Shown here one piece after another: positions 2,762-48,637 of a stretch of DNA of 64,000 bases. The stretch spans positions 5,159 to 69,158 of the forward strand of contig CAYRCU010000001.1 of the NCBI GenBank assembly GCA_964422865.1, in the 5' to 3' direction. Source of the stretch: an uncultured Gammaproteobacteria bacterium (lineage in GTDB: Bacteria > Patescibacteriota > Microgenomatia > UBA8517). The stretch's first letter is position 1. Every line of letters begins with the position of its first letter. Below the pieces are notes generated by a model. It had not been told where the DNA came from. It worked only from the letters and a program-made list of their open reading frames with translations, and searched no databases. A program made the translations under genes and the position numbers.

Positions 2762-3679
2762 TTACTTTGTTACTTTTATAGAGCGAGAGACTGCGGTAAG
2801 GCTCCCCAGGAGAGCTATTAAAATTCCCACAATCAACTCCACTGCTAAAATTGCCCCTAAAAGGAGGAAGAATTGGACAGTATCTTTTGGCAGAACCGGT
2901 ATTTCACCAAAATAGGTAAATATTGAGGGGGTGGCATACATTACAAGAACGGAAGCCATGAGCCAGCCGAAAAATACACCTATAACAACATAGTTAATTG
3001 CCTCAAAGATAATTGGTGCGCGGATGAACCAAGTGCCCGCGCCGATAAGAAACAGGTTTTCAATTTCCTTTTTCTTGGTTGCCACTCTCATGCCTATTAC
3101 AACCATGAGAACCAACAGTGATGTAAGAATAAGAACCGAGACTGCAATTGCTCCCCCATAGCGGATGTAATTTGTGACACTTTTTAATCTTTGAACTACT
3201 TCGTCCAGGGAAGACTCTCCTCCGATGTTTGCCGTGAAGCTTACGCTTTCTACTATTTCTTCGTCTTTGATTTCGTTGATTACTTCTTCAACAAGCTTTA
3301 GGTCGCTGACGGAAAACTCCAGGCTCTCCGGGAAAATGGACGGGCTTACAAGCTCTCGGAGCAAGGGATTGTCTGATGTGGCTTCTTTGTAAAGATCCAG
3401 TGCTTCTTCTTTTGAAACGTGGGTTACGGACTCAATTCTTGAGTCTTCTTCCAGCTTTTTTTTGAGGGCTTCTACTTCTTCCGTTTTTGTATCGGGAGCA
3501 ATGAATGCTATTACCTGAGGGCGTGTTTCAAAATAGACAAGAAGCTGGTGCGAGGAATAAACAACTATGGCAAGAAGGGTTGTTACAAAAAAGGAAATTA
3601 ATAAAACGGAGATTGCGGCCAGGGCCTGGAAAGGGGCTCTGCGCATTGACTCAAAACTGGTTTTTAGGTGAGTTTTCAT
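2762..3679 (-). CDS. ftsX: Cell division permease FtsX
   Basis: 305 aa with four TM segments and a large extracytoplasmic loop. Overlaps ftsE by 4 bp. Confidence 0.85.
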   Translation of the reverse strand: MKTHLKTSFESMRRAPFQALAAISVLLISFFVTTLLAIVVYSSHQLLVYFETRPQVIAFIAPDTKTEEVEALKKKLEEDSRIESVTHVSKEEALDLYKEATSDNPLLRELVSPSIFPESLEFSVSDLKLVEEVINEIKDEEIVESVSFTANIGGESSLDEVVQRLKSVTNYIRYGGAIAVSVLILTSLLVLMVVIGMRVATKKKEIENLFLIGAGTWFIRAPIIFEAINYVVIGVFFGWLMASVLVMYATPSIFTYFGEIPVLPKDTVQFFLLLGAILAVELIVGILIALLGSLTAVSRSIKVTK

Positions 3680-6936: not shown

Positions 6937-7498
6937 TCCTATATTCTTTTGCCGCTTCTACGACTGCTTTGCGGGCCATGGTTATCTGTTCGCGCGTTGA
7001 CTTTAGATCAGCTCTGAGTTCGCCGATTGCAGTTCTTGCGGCTTTTCCCAGATTATCTTCGCTGCTAAAATTGATTACGTAAATTTTCAGGGATTGTGCT
7101 TCTACTGCACTCTCAGCTGTGGCGATTGCTTCTTTTGCAAGAATTACTGCCTCAGTTTCTCCGGACCTGCTTTCAATTTTTGCAAGAATTTTTGCAAGAC
7201 GCGCCAGTATCTTTCTCCACCTTTCGGTCCAATTGCTGTTTATTTTTTGTATGCGCTCGTCAATGTGCTCAATAATCTTTTGTTTTCTTTCGTCTTTTAA
7301 TGTTTTTACTTTTTCGCGAAATTCTTCCCTTTCTTGAAGCAATTGTTGGCGGATTTCTGCGGCATTTTCTTTGCGTTCAAGCCTGTTTTGTGTGCGGACT
7401 TCGCGGATTTCTTCTGCTCTTTGCCTCACCGGGACTTCCACCGTATCGCCCGCCGGCATCATCGAAGTTACAAATAATAAAGCAATTATACCTATCAT
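6908..7498 (-). CDS. Secreted coiled-coil hypothetical protein
   Basis: Signal peptide. Arg/Glu-rich heptad-like sequence. Confidence 0.45.
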   Translation of the reverse strand: MIGIIALLFVTSMMPAGDTVEVPVRQRAEEIREVRTQNRLERKENAAEIRQQLLQEREEFREKVKTLKDERKQKIIEHIDERIQKINSNWTERWRKILARLAKILAKIESRSGETEAVILAKEAIATAESAVEAQSLKIYVINFSSEDNLGKAARTAIGELRADLKSTREQITMARKAVVEAAKEYRNANSFKDEE

Positions 7499-35698: not shown

Positions 35699-36313
35699 TT
35701 GTTTAATATGTTTGAGGTTATTTTTGATGTTGAAACTCAGAAGTTTTTTGATGAGATTGACGATAATGATCCCGGCAAACTTGGGGTAAGCATTGTATCT
35801 GTTTATTCAAGAAAGCTTGATGATAATTTCAATGAAATCGAAGGAAAAATGGAAAGCTTTTGGGAGAAAGAGCTTGCTGAAATGTGGCCTATTTTCCAAA
35901 GGGCAGACCGGATTATTGGATTTAACAGTGTAAAGTTTGATGTGCTAACTTTAGAGCCCTATGCAGACTTTCCTTTTGGCAAACTCCCCCACTTTGATAT
36001 TTTAGAGGAGGTTAAAAGATCGTTTGGCAGAAGAGTGAAACTTGATGCAATTGCAAAAGATACACTGGGAAATGTCAAAAATGACCACGGAGCAAATGCT
36101 GTAAGATATTACAAAAGCGGAGACAGAAAAAGTTTGGAAAAGCTAAAAAAATACTGTGAAATGGATGTCGTGATTACACGAGACATATATGATTACGGAC
36201 TTAAAAACGGAAGGCTTAAGTTTACTGATCACTGGAACACTCCAAGAGAAATAGAAGTTGATTTTAGCTATCCGGAGACGGAGTCTTTGGATGCACAGAT
36301 TGGACTTTTTTAA
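35699..36313 (+). CDS. Stand-alone DEDDy-type 3'-5' exonuclease (RNase H-like fold)
   Basis: Exo I FDVETQ, Exo II GFNSVKFD, Exo III YCEMDVVITRDIY (YxxxD). Lies 25 bp downstream of the PD-(D/E)xK gene. Confidence 0.6.
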   Translation: MFNMFEVIFDVETQKFFDEIDDNDPGKLGVSIVSVYSRKLDDNFNEIEGKMESFWEKELAEMWPIFQRADRIIGFNSVKFDVLTLEPYADFPFGKLPHFDILEEVKRSFGRRVKLDAIAKDTLGNVKNDHGANAVRYYKSGDRKSLEKLKKYCEMDVVITRDIYDYGLKNGRLKFTDHWNTPREIEVDFSYPETESLDAQIGLF

Positions 36314-36321
36314 TACTTTTT

Positions 36322-37362
36322 TTATCTCTGGCTTGAAAAACTTTTAAGTATTCCAAGAGACATATCGGTTTTTTTAATTGACTTTTGGGGATTTCTTTCT
36401 ACCTCGGATAAAGCTCTGATTGCATCAACGTTTTCGGGAATCACAATTGCTTCATTGTGAACTTGGTAATAAAAGGTAACATCACGCCCTTGCACATATA
36501 AAGAATCTTCCCAAAAAGCAACCTCCCACATATCTGCCCTCGGTCGTTTAAGATCTCGCATAAGCTCGACTAACTGATTTTCTGCAACCAATCCGTCTTC
36601 GTGCTTTACCGAAACAACCCGTGGTAAGGACTTTAACAAATTAACAATTTCATCTTTTGAAATTTCTTTATTTAATCTTATAAACGCTATATGAAGATGT
36701 CCCAGGGTCGTGGGAACCGCCATGGCCGCAGTAACGATATTTAAGCCGTGAATAACTTTTTGCGCGTCAATCCCTTGATGAGAAGGAATACTTTCTTCCA
36801 ACCTTATGGTCCCCAGTGGCCCTTGCTCGTGAGAATCAACCGGGTCTGATCCACGTCTAGCCAAAGCAATGTGGGCGACATCTAAAATCTGATCTCTTAC
36901 GAACGGATAAACGATTCTGCATATAGCTGTTGTATTGCAGGAAACCACTCTTAGACTCTTTTTACCTAAAGCATCACTGTAATTGACTTCTGCCACAAAG
37001 GAAAAACCGGTTAGATCGTGTTTCTCTCCGCCTTGAAATACAGATTTAACTCCAAACTGATCATACTTTTCTTTATTCTTCGCCCCAATTCCCTTTGGAG
37101 TTGCATCAACAATTATATCAACATATTTAAGTAGATTATCCAGATCACCCTTGCATTTATATCTGCTTGCCATTAGCTTTTGACATGCATCGGCATCAAC
37201 TCCATAAAGAGAAATGTTTGATTTTTTTATAGGGAAAAGCCGAAAGTCCGGTGTTCTGGCGGTTACTCCTACAAGTTCCATGTCGTCTTGTAAAAGTACA
37301 GCATCAGCAATTCTCTTACCGATAACTCCATAGCCATTTATTCCAACCTTAATCTTTTTCAT
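36322..37362 (-). CDS. Archaeal-type (type II) glyceraldehyde-3-phosphate dehydrogenase
   Basis: VGINGYGVIGKR Rossmann start and catalytic SCNTT motif, characteristic of type II GAPDH. Confidence 0.75.
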   Translation of the reverse strand: MKKIKVGINGYGVIGKRIADAVLLQDDMELVGVTARTPDFRLFPIKKSNISLYGVDADACQKLMASRYKCKGDLDNLLKYVDIIVDATPKGIGAKNKEKYDQFGVKSVFQGGEKHDLTGFSFVAEVNYSDALGKKSLRVVSCNTTAICRIVYPFVRDQILDVAHIALARRGSDPVDSHEQGPLGTIRLEESIPSHQGIDAQKVIHGLNIVTAAMAVPTTLGHLHIAFIRLNKEISKDEIVNLLKSLPRVVSVKHEDGLVAENQLVELMRDLKRPRADMWEVAFWEDSLYVQGRDVTFYYQVHNEAIVIPENVDAIRALSEVERNPQKSIKKTDMSLGILKSFSSQR

Positions 37363-37512
37363 TTAACAACAACCAGCAGCATTTTTTTTCTTATCTTTCT
37401 CTTTTAATTTCTTTCCACGATTATACAAAAATTTTCCGATGAAAGATTTCGGTTTTTCTTCAACTTTCTTGCTTTGTTTAGCGGTGCTGCTGCTTCCACA
37501 ACAATCTGACAT
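37363..37512 (-). CDS. 49-aa Lys-rich peptide with vicinal Cys pairs at both termini (MSDCC...AAGCC)
   Basis: Manual translation gives MSDCCGSSSTAKQSKKVEEKPKSFIGKFLYNRGKKLKEKDKKKNAAGCC. SD AAGGAAA lies 8 nt upstream. Its stop TAA abuts the GAPDH ATG, and it sits 14 nt after the Cu-ATPase stop. The ORF track shows only a longer artefactual 110-aa ORF here. Confidence 0.5.
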   Translation of the reverse strand: MSDCCGSSSTAKQSKKVEEKPKSFIGKFLYNRGKKLKEKDKKKNAAGCC

Positions 37513-37526
37513 GTTAATTGTTTCCT

Positions 37527-39677
37527 TTATATTGCATCTAAATTGACCTTTCTTAGTGTCATGGCGTTGACTACCACTATTACAGAAGACATGCTCATGA
37601 GTAAGGCGCCAACTTCGGGAGACAACCTGACTCCCCAGGGCACAAACAGCCCTGCTGCCGCAGGAATGGCTATGACGTTGTAGCCCAATGCCCAAACCAG
37701 GTTTTCAACCATTTTCCTGTATACTTTTTTAGCCAAAACTATCAGACTGACAATATCCTGAGGATTGCTTCGGGTCAAAACAACATCTCCTGCTTCAACA
37801 GCCACATCGGTGCCTGCTCCAACAGCTACTCCAACGTTTGATTGGGTTAAGGCGGGTGCGTCATTAACACCGTCACCCACCATCATAACTTTATTGCCCT
37901 CTTTCTGGAGTTTTTTAACATGCTCATATTTATTCTCCGGCAGTACTTGAGCAAAAACAGTATCGATGTTAAGTTCCTTTGCCACCCCGCCAGCCACTTC
38001 TTGACTGTCTCCTGTAAGCATTGCCACCTTAACATCAAGACTGTGAAGCTTGTCGATCGCCTTTTTAGATTCCGGTTTAATCTTGTCACTAAGGGCAATC
38101 AGGCCAATGATTCGTTTGGTGTTGGCTACAAAGGCGACTGTTTTTCCTTTCTCTGAAAGCTTCTGATAAAGCTGGTTTATCTTGTCGTCCAATAATCCCT
38201 TCTCTTTCATCAGCGTTCTGTTGCCAATTAAGTATTCCGTTCCTCCAACGCTGCCTTTTAGACCCTTGCCTGCCAAGTTTTTTATATTTTTAGCTTTTCT
38301 TGGCACGATTGCGTTTTCTTTTGCAAACTTAACAATAGAAACACCCAAAACATGTGAGGAGTGCTGTTCGATTGCAGAGATTAGTGAAAGAAGTTCTTTT
38401 TGTTTTGACGACAATTTGCTTTTGCTTACCTTTCCTTCCTCAATATCAATAACATCAGTTACACCAAACTCCCCAATTGTCAGAGTTCCGGTTTTGTCAA
38501 AAACAACATAGTCAACATCTTTTACAACTTCCAGCTTTGCCATATCTTTAATGAACACTCCGTTTTTTACCGCAAGCCTGGTAGCGATGGTCGAAACAGT
38601 GGGAATTGCCAGGCCCAAAGCATGAGGGCAAGCAATAACCAGGACAGTAATTGCCAATGTCATTGCAAACACAAAAGTCTGCCCCACCACCAAGGACCAA
38701 ATAATCAGAGTGAGAATGGCTACTGCCAGTGCACTAAAGGTAAGCCACCGGGAAGCTTTGTCTGCAATGCGCTGAGCGGTGGGCTTTGTCTGTTGTGCGG
38801 CAGATATTAGTTTTTGAATCTGCCCGATGGTGGAGCTTTCCCCGACTCGATCAAGAGTAATTTCAACTGATCCATCCAAACAAATTGCCCCGGCAATCGT
38901 CCTGTCACCTTTTGCCTTTTCAACGGGTTTGCTTTCTCCGCTGATGTGAGCTTCATTAAAATTAGCGCTACCTCTCAAAATAACACCATCGGCCGGGACC
39001 TTTTCACCCGGCAAAACCCGAACCACGTCTCCTTTTTTTAATTCATTAATATCAACGTCTCTTGTGCCTCCGTCAATAATGAGGTGGGCTTTCTTGGGCA
39101 AAAGCTTAGCTACCTCTTGCAGGGCATTGCCCGCAGCGCTAGATGATTTTGCCTCCAAGAAGTGGCCAAACAAGAGTACCCAAATAAGAGTTGAAATCTC
39201 CAGATAGAATTCGGCTTCGATTGAGGGCACAAAAGTTGAAACAGCAGAAAATAAGTAGCCTGCACCAACCGCTAAAGAGACCAGGGTCATCATCCCGTAC
39301 TGGCGGGCGCGAATCTCATGACTGGCATGTTCAAAAAACACCAATCCAAAGTAGAAAATGATTGTTGCCAGGCCAAATTCAAGGTAGGAGCGGAAAAAAA
39401 AGTCAGAGTAATTAAGAAAGTTAATGCCGAGTTTGCTGAAAATTGCCAGGGGAACCAGTAAAACAGTAACTATATAGAACCTACGAAGGAAGTTCTGAGC
39501 CGCCTCTGGCCCGGCCATCATGTTAGCGTGATCGTGTCCTTCATGGTTGTGGCTATGTTTCCCGACTTGATCCTCTTTGCCTTTTTCAACCAGGTCCATC
39601 CCACCACATTTAGGACACTTCCCGGGCTTATCGGAAATTACTTCCGGATGCATTGGACAAGTGTACATTTTACTCAT
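37527..39677 (-). CDS. copA: Copper-translocating P1B-type ATPase
   Basis: N-terminal YTCPMHPEV...CPKCGGM metal-binding motif. TM CPH (IACPHALG), DKTGT, HP, and the GDGVNDAP hinge. Confidence 0.9.
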   Translation of the reverse strand: MSKMYTCPMHPEVISDKPGKCPKCGGMDLVEKGKEDQVGKHSHNHEGHDHANMMAGPEAAQNFLRRFYIVTVLLVPLAIFSKLGINFLNYSDFFFRSYLEFGLATIIFYFGLVFFEHASHEIRARQYGMMTLVSLAVGAGYLFSAVSTFVPSIEAEFYLEISTLIWVLLFGHFLEAKSSSAAGNALQEVAKLLPKKAHLIIDGGTRDVDINELKKGDVVRVLPGEKVPADGVILRGSANFNEAHISGESKPVEKAKGDRTIAGAICLDGSVEITLDRVGESSTIGQIQKLISAAQQTKPTAQRIADKASRWLTFSALAVAILTLIIWSLVVGQTFVFAMTLAITVLVIACPHALGLAIPTVSTIATRLAVKNGVFIKDMAKLEVVKDVDYVVFDKTGTLTIGEFGVTDVIDIEEGKVSKSKLSSKQKELLSLISAIEQHSSHVLGVSIVKFAKENAIVPRKAKNIKNLAGKGLKGSVGGTEYLIGNRTLMKEKGLLDDKINQLYQKLSEKGKTVAFVANTKRIIGLIALSDKIKPESKKAIDKLHSLDVKVAMLTGDSQEVAGGVAKELNIDTVFAQVLPENKYEHVKKLQKEGNKVMMVGDGVNDAPALTQSNVGVAVGAGTDVAVEAGDVVLTRSNPQDIVSLIVLAKKVYRKMVENLVWALGYNVIAIPAAAGLFVPWGVRLSPEVGALLMSMSSVIVVVNAMTLRKVNLDAI

Positions 39678-39678
39678 T

Positions 39679-39945
39679 TTATTGTCTGCGCCTGAATACT
39701 TTCAATAGTTCCTTTATAGCTTTCTCTTTTTGGTTTTTAAACTGATCAGCCACATGAGTTTTAAGATGTCTTTCAAGAATCAAGGCGTCAAGACTCTTTA
39801 GAGAGTTTTGAATTGCAAGGGATTGGTCAAGCACGTTTGTGCAGTATTCCTCCTCTTCAATCATTTTATAAAGGCCATCTAATTGGCCTTTGATAATATT
39901 TATCCGCCTTTTTGCTTGCTTTTTAACGTCGTCAGATTTAAGCAT
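39679..39945 (-). CDS. CsoR/RcnR-family metal-sensing transcriptional repressor
   Basis: 88 aa with a DUF156 pattern and conserved Cys (YCTNV) and His (HLKTHV). Immediately upstream of copA. Confidence 0.7.
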   Translation of the reverse strand: MLKSDDVKKQAKRRINIIKGQLDGLYKMIEEEEYCTNVLDQSLAIQNSLKSLDALILERHLKTHVADQFKNQKEKAIKELLKVFRRRQ

Positions 39946-39992
39946 AATGCTTATACCCTACACCCCTCTGGGGTATATGTCAAGTATCTATT

Positions 39993-40880
39993 TTAATTTT
40001 TTACAACGTTAGCTGTAATCGTACTTGTAAGCTTGGGGAAGTTTGGATTGTCGGTATTAACATATATGGTGCGCGTTAACTCCCCTAGGTCGGTGTCATC
40101 TTTGTGTACTGCTGGATTGAAAGACACATTTACGGTCGTGCTCTCATATGTGTTCAATTCTTTTTTACTTACTTTAGCCGATGTACAGCCACAGGAAGTT
40201 GAAACGCGGGTGATTTTTAAAGGTAGTGGCGTGAAGTTGGTTAGGGTAAATGTCGTAGTTGGAACATCTCCGTAGATAACAGTGCCCAAATTATGATTGT
40301 CGGGTGTTATAACAACTTCGTTATTATGTTCTTTATACGCGTTAACTCCCCCGTCAAGATCATATACATTTGTGTATCCAAGACGTGCAATTTCTTGTGA
40401 GGCGTTTTTACTCATGCTTCCTGAGCGGCAATAAACTAGAATTGGTGTTGATTTGTCTTGGGGAAGCTTATCCAAGTTTTTTGATATTTCGTCAAAGGGA
40501 ATAAAAGCGTCGGTACCGGGTATATGGGTTTGCTCGGGTATGTGGACGTCAACCAGAAACCCGTCACCTTTTTTAACAAGTTCGGAAAATTGTGTTGGGC
40601 TGACCAGTTGTACTCCTTTTGAAGCAAAACTTTTTTGACCGGAGTTACTTTTATCGGATCCTGTGTTGCTGTATGCAAAAAATGTAACAACTACAACAAT
40701 TAATCCAAAAAAGGCTAACAAGCTGAAGGTTGCAGTTTTCCTAAAGCGGGCAGATTGAAGAAGTCTTCCTATTATCATTTTGTTAAACTCCACATCCGCC
40801 CCCGCCTTGTTGTGGTTGTGGAAGACTTTTAATTTTTTGTCGGGTTTCTTGATACCCTTGACCGCTGGAATATTGTGCAC
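39993..40880 (-). CDS. Rhodanese-domain plus DUF1573-domain membrane-anchored protein
   Basis: Rhodanese active-site loop YCRSGSMS. C-terminal DUF1573-like beta domain with SCGCTSAKV. TM near the N-terminus. Confidence 0.6.
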   Translation of the reverse strand: MHNIPAVKGIKKPDKKLKVFHNHNKAGADVEFNKMIIGRLLQSARFRKTATFSLLAFFGLIVVVVTFFAYSNTGSDKSNSGQKSFASKGVQLVSPTQFSELVKKGDGFLVDVHIPEQTHIPGTDAFIPFDEISKNLDKLPQDKSTPILVYCRSGSMSKNASQEIARLGYTNVYDLDGGVNAYKEHNNEVVITPDNHNLGTVIYGDVPTTTFTLTNFTPLPLKITRVSTSCGCTSAKVSKKELNTYESTTVNVSFNPAVHKDDTDLGELTRTIYVNTDNPNFPKLTSTITANVVKN

Positions 40881-41757
40881 TTAGAACCAGCTTTGAATCT
40901 ACTTCATTCCAATCTTGTCCTTGTTCCTCAAAGTATGTAGCAAGCTCGATATAGGTTTGAGGAAACCAATATGAATTAACTTTCAGTGCCGTATCATACA
41001 TTTTTCGTTCGCTTGCTCCATTTGCTACCATGAGCTCCAAAAGGCCAAGCATGGCCATTCCGTGATTGCAATCAGGGAAATGAGTTGAGTTTCCACAACA
41101 GGGTCTAAAAATTCCCCTTGACACACGATCAACCAGTTCCTGCTGTTCTTTTGTGAGTATGACATAGGGATGTGCACTGAAATGGTTCATCACATTGCCA
41201 CGACTAAGTGACCAGCCTCCGGTCGATGCAAACTTACTTGCATCTCCCCCATATTTTTGATCTGTCATTTCACCGTTTGTTAATATTTCATTTTTATTTG
41301 CCAAGCCAAATGCCCAAAGCATGTCAAGTAAAAACCTGCTATTTTGCGAGGTCATTACAATTTTTTTGTTCCACACCCCCGAAAGAATTTTTTCTTCGCT
41401 GTCTTGCAGGCCATTTTTAAAAAGCTCTTTGAACTTGGCTTCATCTATGACTCCATCTGCAACCATTCTTTTTCCCAGATCACCCCATGTTATTGGCAAC
41501 TCAACCCCTTCTTTTGAAATAACTGTGTCTTGTAATTTTGATGAGTCTATTTTTGACTCAGTCACCTTACCAGCCTTTTGGACTCCCTTATTTTTAGAAA
41601 TCAGGGTTGAAAAGCTAAACCTTGGTTTTATGTTAAAGCTAAAGACTTGAGTGAAGATAACGACTCCTAATAAAGTAAATGCTGCCGCTCTCCAAAACTT
41701 AATTGAATTATCTCTCTTTACGTTCTTGTTTATATTTTTTCTTACTAATCTGGGCAT
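40783..41757 (-). CDS. Secreted or membrane-anchored Cys/His-rich protein of unknown function
   Basis: N-terminal TM. Cys/His cluster FRPCCGNSTHFPDCNHGMAM. C-terminal QPQQGGGGCGV. No known domain recognised. Confidence 0.4.
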   Translation of the reverse strand: MPRLVRKNINKNVKRDNSIKFWRAAAFTLLGVVIFTQVFSFNIKPRFSFSTLISKNKGVQKAGKVTESKIDSSKLQDTVISKEGVELPITWGDLGKRMVADGVIDEAKFKELFKNGLQDSEEKILSGVWNKKIVMTSQNSRFLLDMLWAFGLANKNEILTNGEMTDQKYGGDASKFASTGGWSLSRGNVMNHFSAHPYVILTKEQQELVDRVSRGIFRPCCGNSTHFPDCNHGMAMLGLLELMVANGASERKMYDTALKVNSYWFPQTYIELATYFEEQGQDWNEVDSKLVLSAQYSSGQGYQETRQKIKSLPQPQQGGGGCGV

Positions 41758-41758
41758 A

Positions 41759-42265
41759 TCAAATGTAATAATTTAATAAAATGTAAATCCCCATGCTTAA
41801 AAGCAACATTGAGCCGAGACTTAAAATAATTGATTGAAAGGGGAACAAAACTTTTCCGTTTTTCTTTTTAATCAGAGTGTTTACCGTGTCAACTAAATAA
41901 AACAATATTCCTCCTGCAAGTATGCCGAATGTTAATTTAGGGAGATTAAATACAAGACCATTATGCTCATTTATAAGTCCAAATCTGTAGAAGGATACTA
42001 TTGTTGTAACAAAAATTAATAGATAGAAAACTTGCTTTTGGAATGGAATGTAAGTTTTATTAACTGAATTTGTGATCCAGAAACTCATAGCACCCAAGAA
42101 CGCACCCATCCAAACTCCGGTGATGGAATCGTCGATGCCCAGCACTCTTGAGAGTGACAACCCTGCGCCCGCACCCGCTACACAGAGTGGACAGTGCGCG
42201 TGAGCCGGTTTTGCAAATAATAAGCCCGTTATTGATAAGGGGATGCTGTATTTTAAGTTTTTCAT
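41759..42265 (-). CDS. Polytopic membrane protein with an N-terminal HCPLC motif
   Basis: Signal-like start. AHAHCPLCVAG. Four TM helices. Confidence 0.4.
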   Translation of the reverse strand: MKNLKYSIPLSITGLLFAKPAHAHCPLCVAGAGAGLSLSRVLGIDDSITGVWMGAFLGAMSFWITNSVNKTYIPFQKQVFYLLIFVTTIVSFYRFGLINEHNGLVFNLPKLTFGILAGGILFYLVDTVNTLIKKKNGKVLFPFQSIILSLGSMLLLSMGIYILLNYYI

Positions 42266-42897
42266 CTGATTACGGTTCCATCAAAGGTTAACTCTTTGAT
42301 TCCCGACGGTTTGCTAAAGGTTAGTCGCACGGCTCTATTGAAAGGCCCTACTCCCTGCGGACCATGAGCAGCAGGATTAAACTCCACAATTATTTTTGCT
42401 GTTTCTCCGGGAGGGATTTCAAAATTTATTGGAGGATTCTTATCTCCCGGGTGCTCCATGCCAAAAAATCTTGATTCTTTGCCGTTTAGTGACACCTTTG
42501 CCTTAGTACACATGCAGGAAGTTACAATTTTTTGCAATTTTGCGGTTTGAGTGGTCTCGTTTTTTACTTCATATTCTCTTGAGATTAAACCACCATTAAT
42601 CGGAACGTCACCGAGTTTGTAAGTTTCAGGACTAATTTGAATATCGGTAATCTGGACCTGAGATTGATTATTTTCGTCTGCAGTGCTTTCTTCTGTACCT
42701 TGCGAAAATGCAAAACCTATAACCAGAACGGCTGTAAGCGCAATAATTCCAAAAAATATTTTTATATCGCCAGATCCAAACTTGTTTATATCGCCAGATC
42801 CAAACTTGTTTATATCACTAGATCCAAACTTGTTTATATCACTAGATCTAAACTTGTTTATATCGCCAGATCCAAACTTGTTTATATCGTTTCCCAT
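42262..42897 (-). CDS. DUF1573-domain membrane protein with five N-terminal DINKFGSG repeats
   Basis: Tandem octapeptide repeats, one TM, and DUF1573-like TSCMCTKAKV. Confidence 0.55.
   Translation of the reverse strand: MGNDINKFGSGDINKFRSSDINKFGSSDINKFGSGDINKFGSGDIKIFFGIIALTAVLVIGFAFSQGTEESTADENNQSQVQITDIQISPETYKLGDVPINGGLISREYEVKNETTQTAKLQKIVTSCMCTKAKVSLNGKESRFFGMEHPGDKNPPINFEIPPGETAKIIVEFNPAAHGPQGVGPFNRAVRLTFSKPSGIKELTFDGTVIR
42760..42897. repeat. Five and a half copies of a 24-bp tandem repeat (GATCCAAACTTGTTTATATCGCCA) encoding DINKFGSG
   Basis: Direct inspection. Copies are near-identical, with a few substitutions. Confidence 0.8.
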
Positions 42898-43170
42898 TTA
42901 TTTTTCATTTCTCCCAAAAAGATCAACGATTTCTTCAATGAGTTTCTCTCTTTTGGATTTGGTTCCATGGATTTCATTAAAAACACATGAATGAAGATGT
43001 CCGTGAAGTATTAGTTCATCTACTTTTTTAAGTGCAGCTTGCACTGCTTTAGACTGATGAATCACATCAGGGCAATATGCATCTTCTTCAACCATACTGC
43101 GCACTTTTTTAAGATGCCCTTCTGCTCTTGCTAATCTATCTATTGCCTGCTTCTTGACAGTTTTATCCAT
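42898..43170 (-). CDS. csoR: CsoR-family copper-sensing repressor (canonical Cys-His-Cys form)
   Basis: 90 aa with C in YCPDV, HGHLHSC, and helix pattern matching CsoR. Confidence 0.75.
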   Translation of the reverse strand: MDKTVKKQAIDRLARAEGHLKKVRSMVEEDAYCPDVIHQSKAVQAALKKVDELILHGHLHSCVFNEIHGTKSKREKLIEEIVDLFGRNEK

Positions 43171-43233
43171 AATACCTATTCTATCCTTATCCCCCCGTTA
43201 GGGATATTATTTATAATAATGGATTGATTATTC

Positions 43234-43836
43234 TTGTCAATGGGGGAAAATAACAAAAATAAAATGAAAAAGAAAACCGATCAAAAAGAAATCGAGAAAT
43301 TATTAAAAAAAGTGGCAGATGTTACAAAAGAAAACAAGATTGATTTGTCCTCCGGTGAAGACCTTTCCGTGGGAATAATGAACCTTATTGCCATAGAAGA
43401 GCATCTTTTTTACACTTCACAAAAAACCGGAAAGAAAAAATATTTGGGTCTTCTTAATGAGATCCGAGCAATGCGAACAGAGCTTATGCAGGAGATAATC
43501 AAAGATTATGAAGGGGAGGTTTGGTGTATTAGTAAGCATTTGCTGGCTGCTTCGATGAGGGTGATGGAAGTTGGAACAAAGGAGCTTAAGAAAGGCAACA
43601 AAGACAAAGCTTGGAATTTATTTAGAAAGAGTTACAATCTTTACTCTTTATTTTGGGGCATAAACCTTGGCGTTGTTAAAACCGATAAAATAAAGCGTGG
43701 TGACAAAGGAGTGAATTTAACAAACAAGAGTTTGCAAGCTTCATTTATAGATGATGATAATAAAAGTGGGTCTGCTTCACTATTTAGCAAGCTTGGGCAG
43801 ATTGTTCAAAAGGCAATAGATTGTTGCAAAGAGTGA
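43234..43836 (+). CDS. Hypothetical Lys-rich protein ending in a C-terminal vicinal Cys pair (…AIDCCKE)
   Basis: 200 aa, divergent from csoR. C-terminal CC motif like merA and the 49-aa peptide. Confidence 0.4.
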   Translation: MSMGENNKNKMKKKTDQKEIEKLLKKVADVTKENKIDLSSGEDLSVGIMNLIAIEEHLFYTSQKTGKKKYLGLLNEIRAMRTELMQEIIKDYEGEVWCISKHLLAASMRVMEVGTKELKKGNKDKAWNLFRKSYNLYSLFWGINLGVVKTDKIKRGDKGVNLTNKSLQASFIDDDNKSGSASLFSKLGQIVQKAIDCCKE

Positions 43837-43897: not shown

Positions 43898-45307
43898 CTA
43901 GATACAGCAACTTAATTTTGAGATGTCTTTCTTAAAAGAAAGCGCTGCAAGTTTTATTCCCTCGCTTAGTGTGGGGAACATTGGCAGCGAATTAATTACA
44001 TCATCAATAGTGTTTTTGTTTTTTACTAGCATCATGGCTTCAGCTATTAACTCTCCGGCTTGGGGAGCAAGAATATGAACTCCAAGAATTTCGGCTGTTT
44101 CTGGGTGAATACTCATACTAATCAGGCCTTCTGTTCTTCGCAGTATAGCGGCTTTGGGAACATGCTTGAAAGAGACTGTGCGACATGCGCAAGTATTCAT
44201 TCTTTTCATTTGTTCTTCCTCGGTTAACCCTACACCTGCTAGCTGGGGATCAGTAAAAATAGTATAGGGAACAGCATTGTAATCAATGTTATTCTTTGTA
44301 ATTTTGAGAGCGTTTTCGGCAGCTAAAGTTCCTTCACGACCGGCAGTCGTCTCAAGCCTGAGTGGTAAATCAACAACATCTCCAACCGCAAAAATGTTTG
44401 GATTATTGGTTTGAAAATTCTCATTAACCACTATAGACTTTCTATCATTTACTTTTACATTGGTAAGTTGCAGTCCCAAACCATTAGTATTTGCGGTCTT
44501 GCCTGTTGCCAAAAGGATTTCATCACAGATTATTTCATCTTGTTTGCCATCTACCTCATAAACAACAATTTTCTTTTCACCTTCTTTTCTTACGCTTTTT
44601 ATTGGAGCATTTGTTTTAACTGTAATACCTTCTTTTTTAAATATTTCTAATAATCGTGCCACCAGTGCTTTGTCTCCTGTTCTAAAGACTGCATCGCCTC
44701 TAACAAGCATTGTTACTTTTGTTCCAAATCGAGCAAACATTTGAGAAAATTCCAAGGCTATTGCCCCTCCACCAACAACCACCAGCTCTTTTGGTTGAGT
44801 TTCCAGTTTTAACGCTTCAATGTGAGTTATATATCCAGCTTTCTTTATTCCATCAATAGGAGGAATATTGGCTGTAGAGCCAGTTGCAATAATAAATTTA
44901 TCTGCTTGCAGCCTCTCTCCATTTACTTCAACTTCTGTTTCAGAAATAAACTTTGCTCGCCCTTCAATTAAAGTAACATTTTCAAGATTTGCCAGTACTC
45001 CCTCATACTTCTCATTGCGCATTTTCTCAACCAAGGAAAGCTCATCTGCTATAACTCTTTGAAAGTCAAAGTTTTTAACTTCAAGCTCTATGCCGGGGAC
45101 ATTGTGATTTTTTGCCAAGTGTAGTAATTCTCCTGCATAAAGCAGAGTTTTAGATGGAACACAACCAACATTTACACAAGTTCCTCCTAGAGGAAGCCCG
45201 TCATTTATTATTGCAGTTTTGGCTCCCAACTCATCGGCTTTAATGGCAGCCGCAAAAGCACCAGCTCCACCACCTATAATAACTAAATCAAACTGCTGTT
45301 CTGTCAT
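43898..45307 (-). CDS. merA: Mercuric reductase (core MerA, no NmerA domain)
   Basis: FAD motif GGGAGAFAAA. Redox disulfide GGTCVNVGCVPSK. C-terminal ...KLSCCI vicinal Cys pair characteristic of MerA. Confidence 0.75.
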   Translation of the reverse strand: MTEQQFDLVIIGGGAGAFAAAIKADELGAKTAIINDGLPLGGTCVNVGCVPSKTLLYAGELLHLAKNHNVPGIELEVKNFDFQRVIADELSLVEKMRNEKYEGVLANLENVTLIEGRAKFISETEVEVNGERLQADKFIIATGSTANIPPIDGIKKAGYITHIEALKLETQPKELVVVGGGAIALEFSQMFARFGTKVTMLVRGDAVFRTGDKALVARLLEIFKKEGITVKTNAPIKSVRKEGEKKIVVYEVDGKQDEIICDEILLATGKTANTNGLGLQLTNVKVNDRKSIVVNENFQTNNPNIFAVGDVVDLPLRLETTAGREGTLAAENALKITKNNIDYNAVPYTIFTDPQLAGVGLTEEEQMKRMNTCACRTVSFKHVPKAAILRRTEGLISMSIHPETAEILGVHILAPQAGELIAEAMMLVKNKNTIDDVINSLPMFPTLSEGIKLAALSFKKDISKLSCCI

Positions 45308-45675
45308 TTGTTTTCAGTATAAATCGTATCAGAGTAGATTGTCGCCTTATATGGTTCTATCGCTTTAATAATTTGTTCGTCGCTTACTTTTCTTTTCTCG
45401 TAAATTACCCACCCCTCACCGTCAAGATTATCCGTAAAACCCACATAAGCATCGATTACACCGCCAACTGCCTTCAGATTGTATTCTGCGCCAACTGCGC
45501 ATGAAGTACACCACATTCCTTCGATTGATAATTCTGCCTTGTATAACTGTCGTCCATTAAGCGAACCCAGTACTGCCGAAACTCCATTATTTGAACCAGA
45601 AATCCTATTTTTTGTCATAATCCCTCCTAAAATAGCTGTGCTTAGTACCACAATTAGGAAAATAATTTTTCTCAT
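45304..45675 (-). CDS. merP: Secreted HMA-domain mercury/metal-binding protein (MerP-like)
   Basis: Signal peptide plus GMWCTSCA (MxCxxC) HMA motif. Confidence 0.6.
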   Translation of the reverse strand: MRKIIFLIVVLSTAILGGIMTKNRISGSNNGVSAVLGSLNGRQLYKAELSIEGMWCTSCAVGAEYNLKAVGGVIDAYVGFTDNLDGEGWVIYEKRKVSDEQIIKAIEPYKATIYSDTIYTENK

Positions 45676-46046
45676 AAATTAGTGTCGAATCTTAGTTGAT
45701 AAACCCAGGGTGCAATCAAAGGTGTGACAATAAAAGTCAAAAAATAATAAAGCAAGATTGCTACTAAGAATGAACCGCCAAACATCAATAACTGTTGTTC
45801 TTTGGCTAAATGTTTACTTCGGCAGTTTTTTCTATATAACTTATAAAACCCAAACCCTAAAACCATTATCCCAAAGCCAAGAAAATACGGCTTACGGTAG
45901 CCAATAGATAAAGCAGTTGATGCACTGCCTACTCCCAGTAGAATTAGTGCGAGAGGGCCAATGCAACACAGGGAGGCGACAAGGGCTGATAACACACCCC
46001 ATTTCAGAGATGAATCAGTGGTTCTTTCCTGTTCGTTTTTTTTCAC
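45672..46046 (-). CDS. merT: Mercuric transport protein MerT-like
   Basis: First TM with a vicinal Cys pair ASLCCIGPLALILLG, as in Tn501 MerT. Three TM helices. Confidence 0.65.
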   Translation of the reverse strand: MKKNEQERTTDSSLKWGVLSALVASLCCIGPLALILLGVGSASTALSIGYRKPYFLGFGIMVLGFGFYKLYRKNCRSKHLAKEQQLLMFGGSFLVAILLYYFLTFIVTPLIAPWVYQLRFDTNL

Positions 46047-46435
46047 AATAATTCTTTTATTTTTTCATTTTTTAAAGAGTAATAAATAGTTTGCCCTTCT
46101 CGACGAGTTGCCACTATCCCGGCTTTGCGCAGCAGTTTTAATTGATGGGATACTGCTGATACAGTGGTGCCCAGAATTTCTGCCATGTCACAAACACAAA
46201 GTTCGTTTAATTCACCAATCAGTTTAATAAGCTTATAGCGTGTTTCTCCTGAAAGCAGTTGGTGAAGCTTAATCTTTTTGGCCAAGCTCGTATCTTTTTT
46301 TAGAGCGCTGTAAACCTTATTGATCTCTTTCTTTGACAAAGTCGGGCCAACACAAATGTGACCCAAGTGTTTTACTTTCATGATGTTTGAATAAGTGTTC
46401 AAATAAAGAATATTAGGTGAATCCTGTTCTGTCAA
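46043..46435 (-). CDS. ArsR/SmtB-family metal-responsive transcriptional regulator
   Basis: ELCVCDMAEILGTTVSAVSHQLKLLRKAGIV gives a metal-binding CVC plus a wHTH recognition helix. It is the first gene of the mer-like operon. Confidence 0.7.
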   Translation of the reverse strand: MTEQDSPNILYLNTYSNIMKVKHLGHICVGPTLSKKEINKVYSALKKDTSLAKKIKLHQLLSGETRYKLIKLIGELNELCVCDMAEILGTTVSAVSHQLKLLRKAGIVATRREGQTIYYSLKNEKIKELL

Positions 46436-46469: not shown

Positions 46470-47111
46470 TTAGTGGGCTAATTTTTCCGGTGATTGATTT
46501 ATATAAGTGTCTATGTATTTTTGAATTAGGGCTTTGTCAACTTCGACAAGCTTCATCATTCTCCCCCAAGAAGCAACTACAACCGAATCCTCGTTTTCGT
46601 CTCGTTTGGTTATAACAACGCTGTTGTTGTTATTTTTAGCTATACTTTTAAGCTTGTTGATACTTCCTTTGTCTAAATCTTTGTATGTGATCCAGATTCC
46701 GCCGTGTTCTAAATTGTGCACTAATTGCTCATCGGGAAGCTCTTTGTCATAAAACCTCCAATCGGCAGGTGTGGACCAGTGCGGTCCTGATGTAGGAGGG
46801 TTTGTTTTATATAAAACTGTTTCTTTTGAGCTTATGTGGTTGACTCCCTCAATTTTAAATTCTTCAACTTTACCCTCTAAGGACACCTCATCTACTTTTT
46901 GCTCAAACGCAATTTCCTCCGGGGATTTTTTGCTAACCAGATAATAGCCTGCGACTACAATGACCAAGACAGCAATCAAAACCGCAATATTTCGCAACTT
47001 TTTAATAGTTGCTTGTTGTTTGGTTTTTTTTCTTTTGAGTTCTTTAATCTTTTTCTTGCGATCTCTTTTGGTCAGATCATCCCATTCTTTAGGATAGTCC
47101 ATAAATTTCAC
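46470..47111 (-). CDS. DUF3105-like membrane-anchored protein
   Basis: NPPTSGPHW...LVHNLEHGGIWI motifs. N-terminal TM. Confidence 0.5.
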   Translation of the reverse strand: MKFMDYPKEWDDLTKRDRKKKIKELKRKKTKQQATIKKLRNIAVLIAVLVIVVAGYYLVSKKSPEEIAFEQKVDEVSLEGKVEEFKIEGVNHISSKETVLYKTNPPTSGPHWSTPADWRFYDKELPDEQLVHNLEHGGIWITYKDLDKGSINKLKSIAKNNNNSVVITKRDENEDSVVVASWGRMMKLVEVDKALIQKYIDTYINQSPEKLAH

Positions 47112-47116
47112 CTCCT

Positions 47117-47857
47117 TTACTGCTTAAGCTCCAGCATAAACGCCGATGTTCCTAACTTCTGTAAAAAATAAGAGGAAACCAGTGAAAACTTTCCGGTAAA
47201 AATTAGTATCCCAAAAATTACCAACAATATTCCTGAGATTTTGTTTATCACCGGAGCATAGGTGTTAAATTTCTTGATTGAAGGAAACACTTTATCAAAA
47301 AAAAGTCCCAGTAATACGAATGGTGTTCCAAGACCAAGAGAAAAAAACAGCAAGAGAGGAAGAGCCTCGATGAATGTGGATTGAGATCCTGCCCAGAAAA
47401 GAATGGCTGCAAGTACCGGCCCGACACACGGTGTCCAGGCAAATCCAAAAGTTGTTCCCAATAAGAAGGCACCAGATGCGGCGCCGCGGTTTCCTTTAAA
47501 TTTTGTTTGATAAGTTTTGTTTAGAAATGGGATGGATACCAGTTTGGCAAACTGCAGACCAATAACTATTAATAGTAATCCTCCAACTTTATTAATAAGC
47601 GGCCGATAGAGCGTTAAACTTCTGGCAAAAGTATTAACTGTTAGACCAAGTAGAAGAAAAATGAATAAAAAACCTGAAGTAAACACCAGCGCATTTTTCG
47701 TAAATACGGCTTTGTGTTTGGCACTCAATCCTTCCGGAGCACTGCCCGCAAGATATCCCACATACGCGGGAGCAATTGGAGCTAAGCATCCTGCAAAAAA
47801 GGTTAAAATGCCTGCCGTGTAGGCAATGGCAAAATTAAATATTGACAGAGGAACCAT
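47117..47857 (-). CDS. ccdA: Cytochrome c-type biogenesis/thiol-disulfide transporter CcdA (DsbD TM domain)
   Basis: Six TM helices with Cys in TM1 (FFAGCLAP) and TM4 (FAWTPCVGP). Confidence 0.7.
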   Translation of the reverse strand: MVPLSIFNFAIAYTAGILTFFAGCLAPIAPAYVGYLAGSAPEGLSAKHKAVFTKNALVFTSGFLFIFLLLGLTVNTFARSLTLYRPLINKVGGLLLIVIGLQFAKLVSIPFLNKTYQTKFKGNRGAASGAFLLGTTFGFAWTPCVGPVLAAILFWAGSQSTFIEALPLLLFFSLGLGTPFVLLGLFFDKVFPSIKKFNTYAPVINKISGILLVIFGILIFTGKFSLVSSYFLQKLGTSAFMLELKQ

Positions 47858-47872
47858 TATTAAAAGTGTTTG

Positions 47873-48637
47873 TCATGACTTAGACAACATATCATCAATT
47901 GCTTGTTTTAATTGCGGATAAGGAACTGCCCCAGGAATCAACCTGGTGTTACCTGTTTTTGTATCAAGCAGGATGTTGCCCGGTGTTCCCGTTACACCTG
48001 CTTTTATCCCACTTTGATAGTCATCTTCTACATGTTGAGTGTATTTTCCACTATCAAGGCATGACTTGAAGGCTGATTCATCTATTCCTATCTCGGAAGC
48101 CAGTTTTGGTAAATCACTTATGTTAAGACCGTTATTGCTTGGAGTTGTTTCAAAGATTTTATCTATTAGTGCCCAGAAGCCTTTTTCACCTGCCAGCTCG
48201 TTTGCGCACTCTGCTGCCTCGGCTTCTTTGTCTGCTTTTGAGTGAATTTGGTCAAGGGGGAAATGTCTATAAATCCACATTACTTGTCCATCATATTCCT
48301 CGATCGCCCGTTGTGCTGTTGAATGAAAACTTTTACAGAAAGGACATTCCAAATCTGAATATTCTATTAAGGCGATTCTTGCGTTTTTGTTGCCTCTAAT
48401 GTGATCGTTTTTTCTTACAGGTTCGACATCGCCCGCTGTGGGCTGGGTGGGTTGCTTTGCTCCAGAGCCTGTTCCGGCCGAGCCGTTAATTTCTGCCAGA
48501 CCAGCAGAGGACGTCTTGTTTTCAAGATTCTGCACTTTTTGCCAGAGTATGCCTACGGCGAAAGCGAAGCCCACTAAAATAATAACTAAAATCGGCGCCG
48601 ACTTTTCAAGAAGATTTTCTTTTACCTTAGAAGACAT
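47873..48637 (-). CDS. DsbA-family thiol:disulfide oxidoreductase (membrane-anchored)
   Basis: Thioredoxin fold with CPFC active site (ECPFCKSFH). N-terminal TM. Confidence 0.7.
   Translation of the reverse strand: MSSKVKENLLEKSAPILVIILVGFAFAVGILWQKVQNLENKTSSAGLAEINGSAGTGSGAKQPTQPTAGDVEPVRKNDHIRGNKNARIALIEYSDLECPFCKSFHSTAQRAIEEYDGQVMWIYRHFPLDQIHSKADKEAEAAECANELAGEKGFWALIDKIFETTPSNNGLNISDLPKLASEIGIDESAFKSCLDSGKYTQHVEDDYQSGIKAGVTGTPGNILLDTKTGNTRLIPGAVPYPQLKQAIDDMLSKS

Follow-up and report, generated by a model that had tools for sequence, protein, structure and literature searches.

The 64,000-nucleotide (nt) stretch of DNA analysed here (the window) is part of contig CAYRCU010000001.1 from an uncultured bacterium of the Patescibacteriota and carries, on its minus strand at 37363..37512, an open reading frame (ORF) for a peptide of 49 amino acids (aa), MSDCCGSSSTAKQSKKVEEKPKSFIGKFLYNRGKKLKEKDKKKNAAGCC, which runs from an ATG at 37512-37510 to a TAA at 37365-37363. 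The peptide has a pair of vicinal Cys at either end (four Cys in all, or 8%) and is rich in Lys (13 of 49 residues; pI 9.7). The small ORF is a genuine protein-coding gene under purifying selection, and its product is probably an undescribed helper in copper handling. The gene had been singled out in an original prediction made from the DNA letters alone, whose coordinates, length, Lys content and Cys pairs all stand on re-reading of the sequence, with the addition of the minus strand, which had been omitted. The two junctions hold as well, since the stop codon of an upstream ATPase gene (TAA, 37527-37529) is followed by the 14 nt AGGAAACAATTAAC and then by the peptide ATG, while the peptide TAA runs straight into the ATG of the gene for a type II GAPDH of 346 aa (36322..37362, minus strand). 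The Shine-Dalgarno (SD) sequence placed 8 nt upstream is indeed represented by an SD-like AGGA, only at a distance of about 10 nt, which is still within the functional range.

In a mechanical list of ORFs the gene is hidden within a 110-aa TTG-started ORF (37363..37695) that engulfs it and overlaps the 3' end of the ATPase gene. As had been supposed, this extension is an artefact because every homolog begins at the Met of MS-x-CC. The window has 363 ATG-started ORFs of 30-120 aa, and no other among them has CC within both its first six and its last three residues, a pattern expected 0.02 times per window by chance if the residues are assumed to be independent. The features of the locus are listed below (homologous loci are designated by L numbers here and throughout).

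37363..37512, minus strand: gene for the 49-aa small protein, with N-terminal MSDCC, a disordered arm, the helix core PKSFIGKFLYNRGK, C-terminal GCC and TAA
37513..37526, minus strand: intergenic spacer of 14 nt, AGGAAACAATTAAC, with the SD-like AGGA about 10 nt 5' of the peptide ATG
36322..37362, minus strand: type II (archaeal-type) GAPDH, 346 aa (NF003251, 428 bits against a cut-off of 185), terminal gene of the minus-strand unit
37527..39677, minus strand: P1B-type heavy-metal ATPase, 716 aa (PF19335, PF00122 and PF00702; TIGR01511, copper-translocating ATPase, 552.6 bits against a cut-off of 397)
39679..39945, minus strand: CsoR/RcnR-family repressor, 88 aa (PF02583, 3.7e-22), with an x-C-H-H pattern (EEEYC…ERHLKTHV) and a single Cys
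39959..39983, minus strand: promoter/operator, TTGACA (39983-39978), a 17-nt spacer with the GC-tract inverted repeat ATATACCCCAGAGGGGTGTA, then TAGGGT
39993..40880, minus strand: membrane-anchored rhodanese-DUF1573 protein, of a family found directly 5' of the peptide gene in the divergent members L021-L024

The genes for CsoR, the ATPase and the peptide lie tightly on one strand, with gaps of 1 nt (csoR-ATPase) and 14 nt (ATPase-peptide), and the coding strand shows no predicted promoter or terminator from ATPase through peptide to GAPDH. The next gene (35699..36313, plus strand) is convergent, so that GAPDH marks the end of the minus-strand unit, which therefore comprises csoR, ATPase, peptide and GAPDH. 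The operator ATATACCCCAGAGGGGTGTA sits between the -35 and -10 elements, in the 47-nt gap 5' of csoR, and its ACCCC-N3-GGGGT core occurs once in 64 kb against an expectation of 0.12. It is presumably an instance of the known GC-tract type of CsoR operator. The same layout of TTGAC plus a GC palindrome is seen 5' of csoR in L007, L008 and L025, with related but non-identical palindromes, and a search of the loci with the strict pattern A[CT]CCC-N-GGG[GA]T matched L004 only. The ATPase has an N-terminal HMBD (residues 5-32), a His-rich HSHNHEGHDH, CPH in its fourth transmembrane segment (TM4), NX5GYNX4P and MSMSS, a set of motifs that we take to be the signature of a CopB/P1B-3-like copper pump in the P1B classification. 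In the repressor, the x-C-H-H ligand pattern is preceded by a Tyr; this pattern was considered consistent with Cu(I) sensing in the CsoR of T. thermophilus, where unequivocal proof is lacking (PMC11672702). The locus thus has the hallmarks of a CsoR-regulated copper efflux operon, namely tight spacing on one strand, a repressor of the CsoR family, a copper P1B-ATPase and a GC-tract palindrome of the CsoR type in the promoter, and the best reading of the locus is that the peptide gene is transcribed with the pump from a predicted CsoR-repressed promoter.

A rare family of short proteins

A search with the single sequence returned four relatives, a profile built from those returned 35 clusters and a 55-sequence profile 48 clusters, while an exhaustive HMMER scan of 1.84 billion protein representatives gave 30 matches at E<=1e-3. 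Profile searches thus put the family at about 70-80 distinct homologs, which makes it rare (some 50-80 clusters among 5.8 billion). Conservation of the small ORF in related genomes, on which the original prediction had staked its case, is therefore documented by these homologs. They are 47-65 aa long and share a common start and end, apart from a few fusions or extended calls. Their consensus, MS[DHN]CC-x2-H … PKSFIGK[F/Y]LYxxGK … GCC-end, reflects a plan in which an M-S-[D/H/N]-C-C start is followed by a variable charged linker with in-frame indels, the core, a charged stretch and a terminal G-C-C. Among 71 distinct sequences, the N-terminal CC is found in 63, CC-x2-H in 44 and the C-terminal CC in 52. 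Seven others end in C-H, exchanging one metal-ligand residue for another, and a few have neither Cys nor His at the C-terminus. The mean Cys content of the family is 6.7%.

Codon-level comparison of genes recovered from contigs gave ratios of nonsynonymous to synonymous rates (dN/dS) of 0.10 for L008 versus L016 (dS 1.06), 0.10-0.13 for L002/L003 versus L017 and 0.22 for L021 versus L023, within an overall range of 0.10-0.25. In most other pairs of genes synonymous sites are saturated, and protein identity is nonetheless 55-65%. Purine-rich SD-like sequences (GGAGG, AAGGAGG, GGTGA) are found 5' of the corresponding ATG in some 16 of 20 loci, although the upstream genes differ. A chance ORF in the spacer between ATPase and GAPDH might well have been suspected, the peptide being very short, of low complexity, rich in Lys and concealed in a longer mechanical ORF. 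However, such an ORF would not have dozens of homologs with conserved ends and core, in-frame indels and differing neighbourhoods, nor would it combine dN/dS of 0.10-0.25 and a conserved SD-like sequence with a CC…CC pattern so rarely expected. The low dN/dS, the conserved ends and core and the conserved SD-like sequences therefore lead us to reject this explanation, to which we leave almost no probability.

On the sequences retrieved, the family is restricted to Patescibacteria, also known as the candidate phyla radiation (CPR). Named members are deposited as 'hypothetical protein' in metagenome-assembled genomes of Candidatus Woesebacteria or Microgenomates (KKQ43412.1, KKQ52379.1, UniRef100_A0A0G0L0I9 and A0A0G0QSB8), and one GTDB locus with the peptide is labelled Patescibacteria group bacterium. 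One of the five matches from a scan of GTDB genomes, L009 from the Altiarchaeota, was discarded as a false positive of a degenerate pattern, being contained in a 356-aa ORF that has no metal genes around it. When the peptide and 55 family members were compared with Pfam and NCBIfam, the only matches were HMBD in three fusions and one sub-threshold match to VcpD, and a profile search of the PDB found no relative, its sole match, at E = 0.56, being a chance one to ribosomal protein eL38. No RNA element was found at the peptide locus when the window was scanned with Rfam and for tRNAs, and a riboswitch or small RNA was ruled out on this basis. No description of the family was found in the literature on DUF5676, on small vicinal-Cys proteins with P-type ATPases or on copper and CsoR in CPR bacteria. 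Thus the peptide is novel, as had been claimed, in the sense that its family is undescribed, but not in the sense that its members were absent from databases, where, for example, KKQ43412.1 was already deposited. With no Pfam or NCBIfam model and members labelled 'hypothetical' or left uncalled, the family is a candidate addition to annotation resources, and it illustrates how real genes of fewer than 50 codons can be masked by longer artefactual ORFs.

AlphaFold2, working from a 34-sequence alignment, predicted a single helix at residues 24-45 (predicted local distance difference test, pLDDT, 80-86, with an overall value of 68), flanked by Cys-bearing ends (residues 1-23 and the C-terminus) of non-regular structure and lower confidence. 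The most conserved columns include P21, K22, S23, G26, G33 and K34, while F24, L29 and Y30 reach 90% conservation or more among the 34 sequences. Conservation of this helical core equals that of the N-terminal Cys pair and exceeds that of the C-terminal pair. On a helical wheel, I25, L29, G33, G26 and Y30 fall on one stripe, with Gly at i and i+7 (G-x6-G), which in the model looks like a close-packing docking face for a specific protein partner and is unlike what a passive thiol sink would have. No hydrophobic segment, signal peptide or transmembrane helix was found, mean Eisenberg hydrophobicity being negative (-0.19 to -0.76) in every 18-residue window, and the peptide is thus considered to be cytosolic. 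The original description of a Lys-rich amphipathic segment is borne out for Lys and only weakly for amphipathicity, since the hydrophobic moment is 0.2-0.47 and FIGKFLY is the sole hydrophobic patch. With so modest a moment, an amphipathic helix binding to the membrane surface was set aside as the main mechanism. That the peptide does not have a CopZ/HMA fold was correctly foreseen, as there is no Pfam match and the predicted structure is a single helix.

Copper islands and HMBD fusions

The gene neighbourhoods of 28 loci were compared and found to represent about 16 distinct architectures. Wherever the flanks were usable, the peptide gene belongs to a copper/thiol island and shares the strand of its genes, and CsoR, an HMBD-P1B ATPase, YHS or DUF5676 is present in all 16 distinct contexts. 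The recurring genes encode CsoR, the HMBD (PF19335) P1B ATPase, a small membrane protein, a DUF5643-like protein, DUF5676 and YHS mini-proteins, to which are added a Met/His-rich membrane-anchored protein with no Pfam match, rhodanese-DUF1573, DsbD/DsbA/DUF3105 and DUF305 or DUF302. L027 also has a three-domain multicopper oxidase and a free 41-aa HMBD. The YHS domain has been proposed to be a copper module (PMC4626032). The gene immediately upstream of the peptide gene varies as follows.

P1B ATPase: the window, L004
YHS: L001, L008, L012, L016 and the first copy in L028
Met/His-rich membrane protein: L002, L003, L007, L014, L017, L020 and the second copy in L028
PGAM-like His_Phos_1: L005, L027
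Rhodanese-DUF1573: L021-L024
DUF305: L025, L026

Downstream, type II GAPDH is found 3' of the peptide gene in six of the 16 architectures. With neighbours this variable, the conserved feature is membership of the island and not the copA-GAPDH junction, on which the original prediction had laid stress. A role as a leader of GAPDH or as a coupling device was rejected, the peptide persisting in the 10 architectures that have no GAPDH. In L028 (GCA_004196255.1), a single island harbours two paralogs of the peptide, one after YHS (3106-3270) and the other (7001-7165) after the Met/His-rich membrane protein, 3' of csoR-ATPase.

A clue to a partner comes from four natural fusions of HMBD to the peptide. 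In two of them (P0034 and the L006 ORF 5833-6147) the arrangement is HMBD-HGCGCHG-core-GCC, and in the other two (P0051 and P0042) it is HMBD-…CC-x2-H-core-GCC. The HMBD of the L006 fusion is 89% identical to that of the window ATPase itself, and the fusion fills the operon slot held by the free peptide in L005. The HMBD motif, YxCPMHPxxxxxxPGxCPxCGMxL, is missing from the 49-aa peptide, and the fusions have it only as an added N-terminal domain. The associated ATPases have HMBD in place of HMA domains, and no HMA/CopZ homolog was found in any related locus, the only HMA protein being that encoded by a membrane-anchored MerP-like gene in the window.

Several other genes of these islands deserve mention. 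The Met/His-rich family (L002 65-634; L007 5178-5693; L014 1517-2140; L020 2276-2893; L028 6425-6988), which lies directly 5' of the peptide gene in about six architectures, consists of proteins of some 170-190 aa with a signal peptide, the motifs HPGEAHERMDEMMGG…MHVQMG and a C-terminal transmembrane anchor that match nothing in Pfam and probably bind metal outside the cytoplasm. The islands are also accompanied by a conserved trio in varying order relative to the peptide gene (L005 3374-5229; L006 3718-4983; L008 4606-5798; L021 7317-8581; L023 7178-8435), namely a small polytopic membrane protein of 140-176 aa that matches nothing in Pfam, a DUF5643-like protein of about 150 aa that stays under the Pfam threshold, and DUF5676, with about 86-94 aa. 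The HMBD P1B ATPases of L005 (1130-3367), L008 (2366-4600) and L016 (9612-11732) are about 39% identical to the window pump and have Met-rich N-termini and, in TM4, CPD instead of CPC or CPH (…VVIACPDALGLATP…). Type II GAPDH, in several cases with a His_Phos_1/phosphoglycerate-mutase-like gene, is found inside CsoR-type copper clusters in the window, L001, L005, L008, L016 and L027. GAPDH is reported to be a target of copper in S. aureus (PMC6350627), and inducing this glycolytic enzyme alongside the pump could therefore benefit CPR bacteria that live by fermentation.

Within the window, the surroundings of the unit contain further genes of the same kind. Membrane-anchored DUF1573 Ig-like proteins with a conserved S-C-G/M-C-T are encoded at 39993-40880 and 42262-42897 (minus strand), as well as at 6235-7008 in L021, one of them being fused to rhodanese; the contigs of L021-L024, the most divergent members, also carry type IV secretion system (T4SS) pilin genes. 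A conserved 324-aa protein without a Pfam or NCBIfam match (40783-41757, minus strand), with the motif RPCCGNSTHFPDCNHG and a C-terminus reading GGGGCGV, has a 39%-identical homolog 5' of csoR in L008 (100-972)/L018/L019 and weaker tblastn matches in L023-L025, and is probably another uncharacterised member of the island. A second CsoR paralog (42898-43206) has the canonical x-C-H-C pattern (YCPDV…HGHLHSC), and the palindrome TATCCCCCCGTTAGGGATA (43188-43206) lies in the divergent promoter between its gene and a gene of 200 codons (43234-43836, plus strand) whose product ends in …IDCCKE. Beyond it, a mer-like operon (43898-46435, minus strand) comprises an ArsR-family regulator (46043-46435), a MerT/MerC-like small membrane protein with LCCIGP (45672-46046), a membrane-anchored HMA protein (45304-45675) and a MerA-like pyridine-nucleotide disulfide oxidoreductase without NmerA that ends in …KLSCCI (43898-45307). 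A MerA homolog 54% identical to the latter directly follows GAPDH in L016. The metal island is flanked at 46470-48637 (minus strand) by genes for DUF3105-like (46470-47111), DsbD_TM/CcdA-like (47117-47857) and DsbA/thioredoxin-like (47873-48637) proteins, a trio that recurs near the peptide in L021, L023 and L025-L027.

A candidate copper accessory and its alternatives

Comparison with known systems helps to delineate what the peptide might be. Like CopZ/Atx1 (PF00403), it is a small soluble cytosolic protein from a CsoR-type operon with a copper P1B-ATPase, its Cys thiolates are the presumed ligands of Cu(I) and it is presumed to feed the pump. Moreover, some members hold a copy of the pump's N-terminal domain (HMBD), much as CopZ resembles the HMA domain of CopA. 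However, there is no relation in sequence or fold, since the peptide has one helix in 49 aa rather than the βαββαβ ferredoxin-like fold of about 70 aa, and terminal vicinal CC pairs rather than a single MxCxxC loop. Pfam and NCBIfam gave no HMA match for the peptide or for the 55 members, the peptide has no CxxC motif, its partner ATPases lack HMA, and its role is a putative one. Cox17 is a small Lys-rich mitochondrial copper chaperone that holds Cu(I) on two adjacent Cys beside a helical region, but it is a twin-Cx9C CHCH disulfide hairpin of the intermembrane space, whereas the peptide has neither Cx9C nor a hairpin. In the C-terminal tail of MerA and the CC pair of MerT, a flexible terminal CC captures a soft metal and passes it to a buried site. 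These are segments of large Hg(II)-specific enzymes or transporters, unlike the peptide, which is free-standing and lies in a copper unit.

The closest precedent for CC at both ends in the service of an efflux ATPase is ArsD, which binds a soft metalloid through vicinal Cys near its N-terminus (Cys12-Cys13, plus Cys18) and its C-terminus (Cys112-113 and Cys119-120) and serves the ArsA ATPase (PMC4562236), although for the peptide, with its vicinal pairs and a gene next to that of an efflux ATPase, binding and transfer are predicted. ArsD differs in its thioredoxin fold, its size (about 120 aa), its metalloid (As(III)) and the class of its ATPase, and no ars genes are found in the peptide loci. 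Membership of the related VcpD family (NF047871) was discarded, as only P0043 matches its model, over a duplicated CCS motif and with 18.8 bits against a cut-off of 90, and the 54 other members do not match at all. With MymT and Csp the peptide shares its nature as a small cytosolic Cys protein under a CsoR-family repressor, RicR in the case of MymT (PMC11672702). Metallothioneins, by contrast, have Cys-dense CxC/CxxC clusters forming multinuclear Cu-thiolate cores, whereas the peptide has four Cys and a conserved non-Cys helix, with no sequence similarity. A bacterial metallothionein (SmtA/BmtA or MymT) was thus rejected, given the low density of Cys, a conservation that includes P21, K22, S23, G26, G33 and K34, and no profile match. 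Two other classes were also discarded, small transmembrane regulators of P-type ATPases (KdpF, sarcolipin/phospholamban, MgtR/MgtS and CcoS), because the peptide has no hydrophobic transmembrane helix, and precursors of ribosomally synthesized and post-translationally modified peptides (RiPPs) or chalkophores such as methanobactin (MbnA), because no MbnB/C-type, radical SAM, YcaO or ABC exporter genes occur in the 16 contexts. The conserved core lies mid-peptide and not at a cleavable end, as the leader-core organization of RiPPs would have it. We infer that the peptide is a functional analogue of CopZ or ArsD and not a homolog of either, and it is best classed as an operon-encoded small accessory protein for metal handling, of undescribed sequence family and architecture and of putative function.

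The link to thiophilic metals, for which the original prediction had proposed a role in binding or hand-off from the Cys pairs, is strengthened by the island of CsoR, P1B-ATPase, YHS and DUF5676 in related loci, by the four HMBD fusions and by the replacement of the last Cys by His in seven members. Copper is favoured over mercury by the context, because of the TIGR01511 match, the His-rich N-terminus and CPH of the pump, CsoR and its operator, YHS, and the multicopper oxidase in L027. The reading that we prefer, with a confidence that we would call even, is that the peptide, made under the control of CsoR, acts in the cytosol as a Cu(I)-binding accessory of the copper island, and within this reading a partner-specific shuttle or regulator has a moderate edge over a passive buffer. 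Several observations weigh against it. Four Cys in 49 residues are few, and 19 of the 71 members do not have the C-terminal CC (a few having no Cys or His there at all), so that a two-ended clamp is not obligatory. The AlphaFold2 confidence is moderate (pLDDT 68) and the underlying alignment shallow (34 sequences). No neighbouring gene is universal, and in L021-L024 there is no P1B ATPase within 7 kb, the peptide following rhodanese-DUF1573 amid Dsb/thioredoxin genes. Finally, the HMBD-P1B ATPases in part of the loci carry CPD in TM4, a motif of unassigned specificity, and the CsoR of the window is of the x-C-H-H type, whose Cu(I) specificity is not unequivocally established.

The most serious competitor, although an unlikely one in our opinion, is a passive Cu(I) buffer or sink that would be induced with the pump, substitute for glutathione or metallothionein and protect thiol enzymes such as the adjacent GAPDH, with no delivery partner. 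Small Cys proteins under CsoR control, such as MymT, CopZ and Csp, are cytosolic factors of Cu(I) sequestration (PMC11672702), and in S. pyogenes glutathione is reported to buffer an excess of copper inside the cell (PMC7733945). The peptide stop abuts the start of GAPDH, the copper target mentioned above, which is the next gene in six architectures out of 16. Yet in the other 10 GAPDH is not adjacent, and a sink would have a low capacity with so few Cys, would find the strongly conserved non-Cys helix motif and its invariant Gly superfluous and would hardly explain recurrent fusion to HMBD, which suggests a specific pathway. The conserved docking-type G-x6-G helix, the tight coupling to the ATPase in the window (14-nt gap) and the fusions to an ATPase-type HMBD would suit a regulatory subunit that senses copper and belongs to the pump or to some other protein of the island, with the helix constitutively bound and occupancy of the Cys pairs by metal switching the partner on or off. 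Small proteins such as sarcolipin, MgtR/MgtS and KdpF do regulate other P-type ATPases, but these known regulators are transmembrane peptides, whereas the peptide has no hydrophobic segment. Furthermore, it occurs without a nearby ATPase in L021-L024, and the L028 paralogs adjoin different neighbours, all of which makes this possibility improbable.

Slightly less probable again is a role with another soft metal or metalloid (Hg(II), Ag(I), Cd(II), Zn(II) or As(III)) or as a broad thiophilic binder. Vicinal Cys pairs are classic ligands of Hg(II) and As(III), as in ArsD, a mer-like operon lies about 6 kb away in the window, MerA follows GAPDH in L016, some associated ATPases have the non-canonical CPD and one member weakly resembles the ArsD-related VcpD model. 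However, the peptide belongs to the CsoR/ATPase unit and lies outside the separately regulated mer unit; only two of 16 contexts have MerA close to the peptide, and none of the loci has ars genes; the VcpD match is far below its cut-off; and it is copper markers that recur (TIGR01511, CPH with a His-rich N-terminus, multicopper oxidase). The least probable of these alternatives, if only by a little, is a relay of thiol redox or sulfane sulfur in which the Cys pairs would cycle between dithiol, vicinal disulfide and persulfide with rhodanese, DsbD, DsbA and thioredoxin. It is suggested by the position of rhodanese-DUF1573 directly 5' of the peptide gene in L021-L024, by the presence of this family in the window, L006, L025/L026 and L028, and by the recurrence of DsbD_TM, DsbA and thioredoxin genes in the islands. 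Nevertheless, these rhodanese and Dsb partners are membrane-anchored or have signal peptides and are extracytoplasmic, while the peptide lacks any export signal and, where fused, is joined to HMBD, which in the pump forms the cytosolic N-terminus. In addition, the exchange of the C-terminal Cys for His in seven members keeps a metal ligand and not a redox centre, and in 44 of 71 members CC-x2-H supplies a His, likewise a metal ligand.

For the Cu(I)-binding accessory, a scenario can be outlined in which we infer from context that the Cys pairs bind Cu(I), which partner receives it and in what direction it is transferred. As Cu(I) rises, CsoR would leave its operator and the peptide would be made together with the pump. 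Its thiolate pairs would pick up cytosolic Cu(I), and the conserved helix would dock on a partner, most likely the HMBD N-terminus or the cytosolic face of the HMBD-type ATPase, or else another island protein. Cu(I) would then be passed on for export, the peptide filling the role that CopZ has for HMA-bearing CopA pumps. A bolder proposal, which we regard as possible if rather doubtful, is that the family represents a previously unrecognised class of minimal, largely disordered metallochaperones specific to Patescibacteria, in which terminal CC clamps would capture Cu(I), the G-x6-G helix would dock on HMBD and the whole would replace the HMA-type CopZ, and which may shield the co-transcribed, copper-sensitive GAPDH in hosts reliant on fermentation.

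P1B copper pumps are usually thought to be supplied by HMA-fold chaperones such as CopZ, while the CPR pumps discussed here carry HMBD instead. A mini-protein that is capped by Cys, linked to the operon and sometimes fused to HMBD is thus a candidate for the missing cytosolic copper partner. Its size is within reach of chemical synthesis, which makes binding, transfer and docking directly testable even though the hosts are uncultivated. Should the family prove to be the proposed class of metallochaperones, the synthetic 49-residue peptide would be a tractable model of Cu(I) hand-off, and HMBD-type pumps would turn out to have a dedicated chaperone system of their own.

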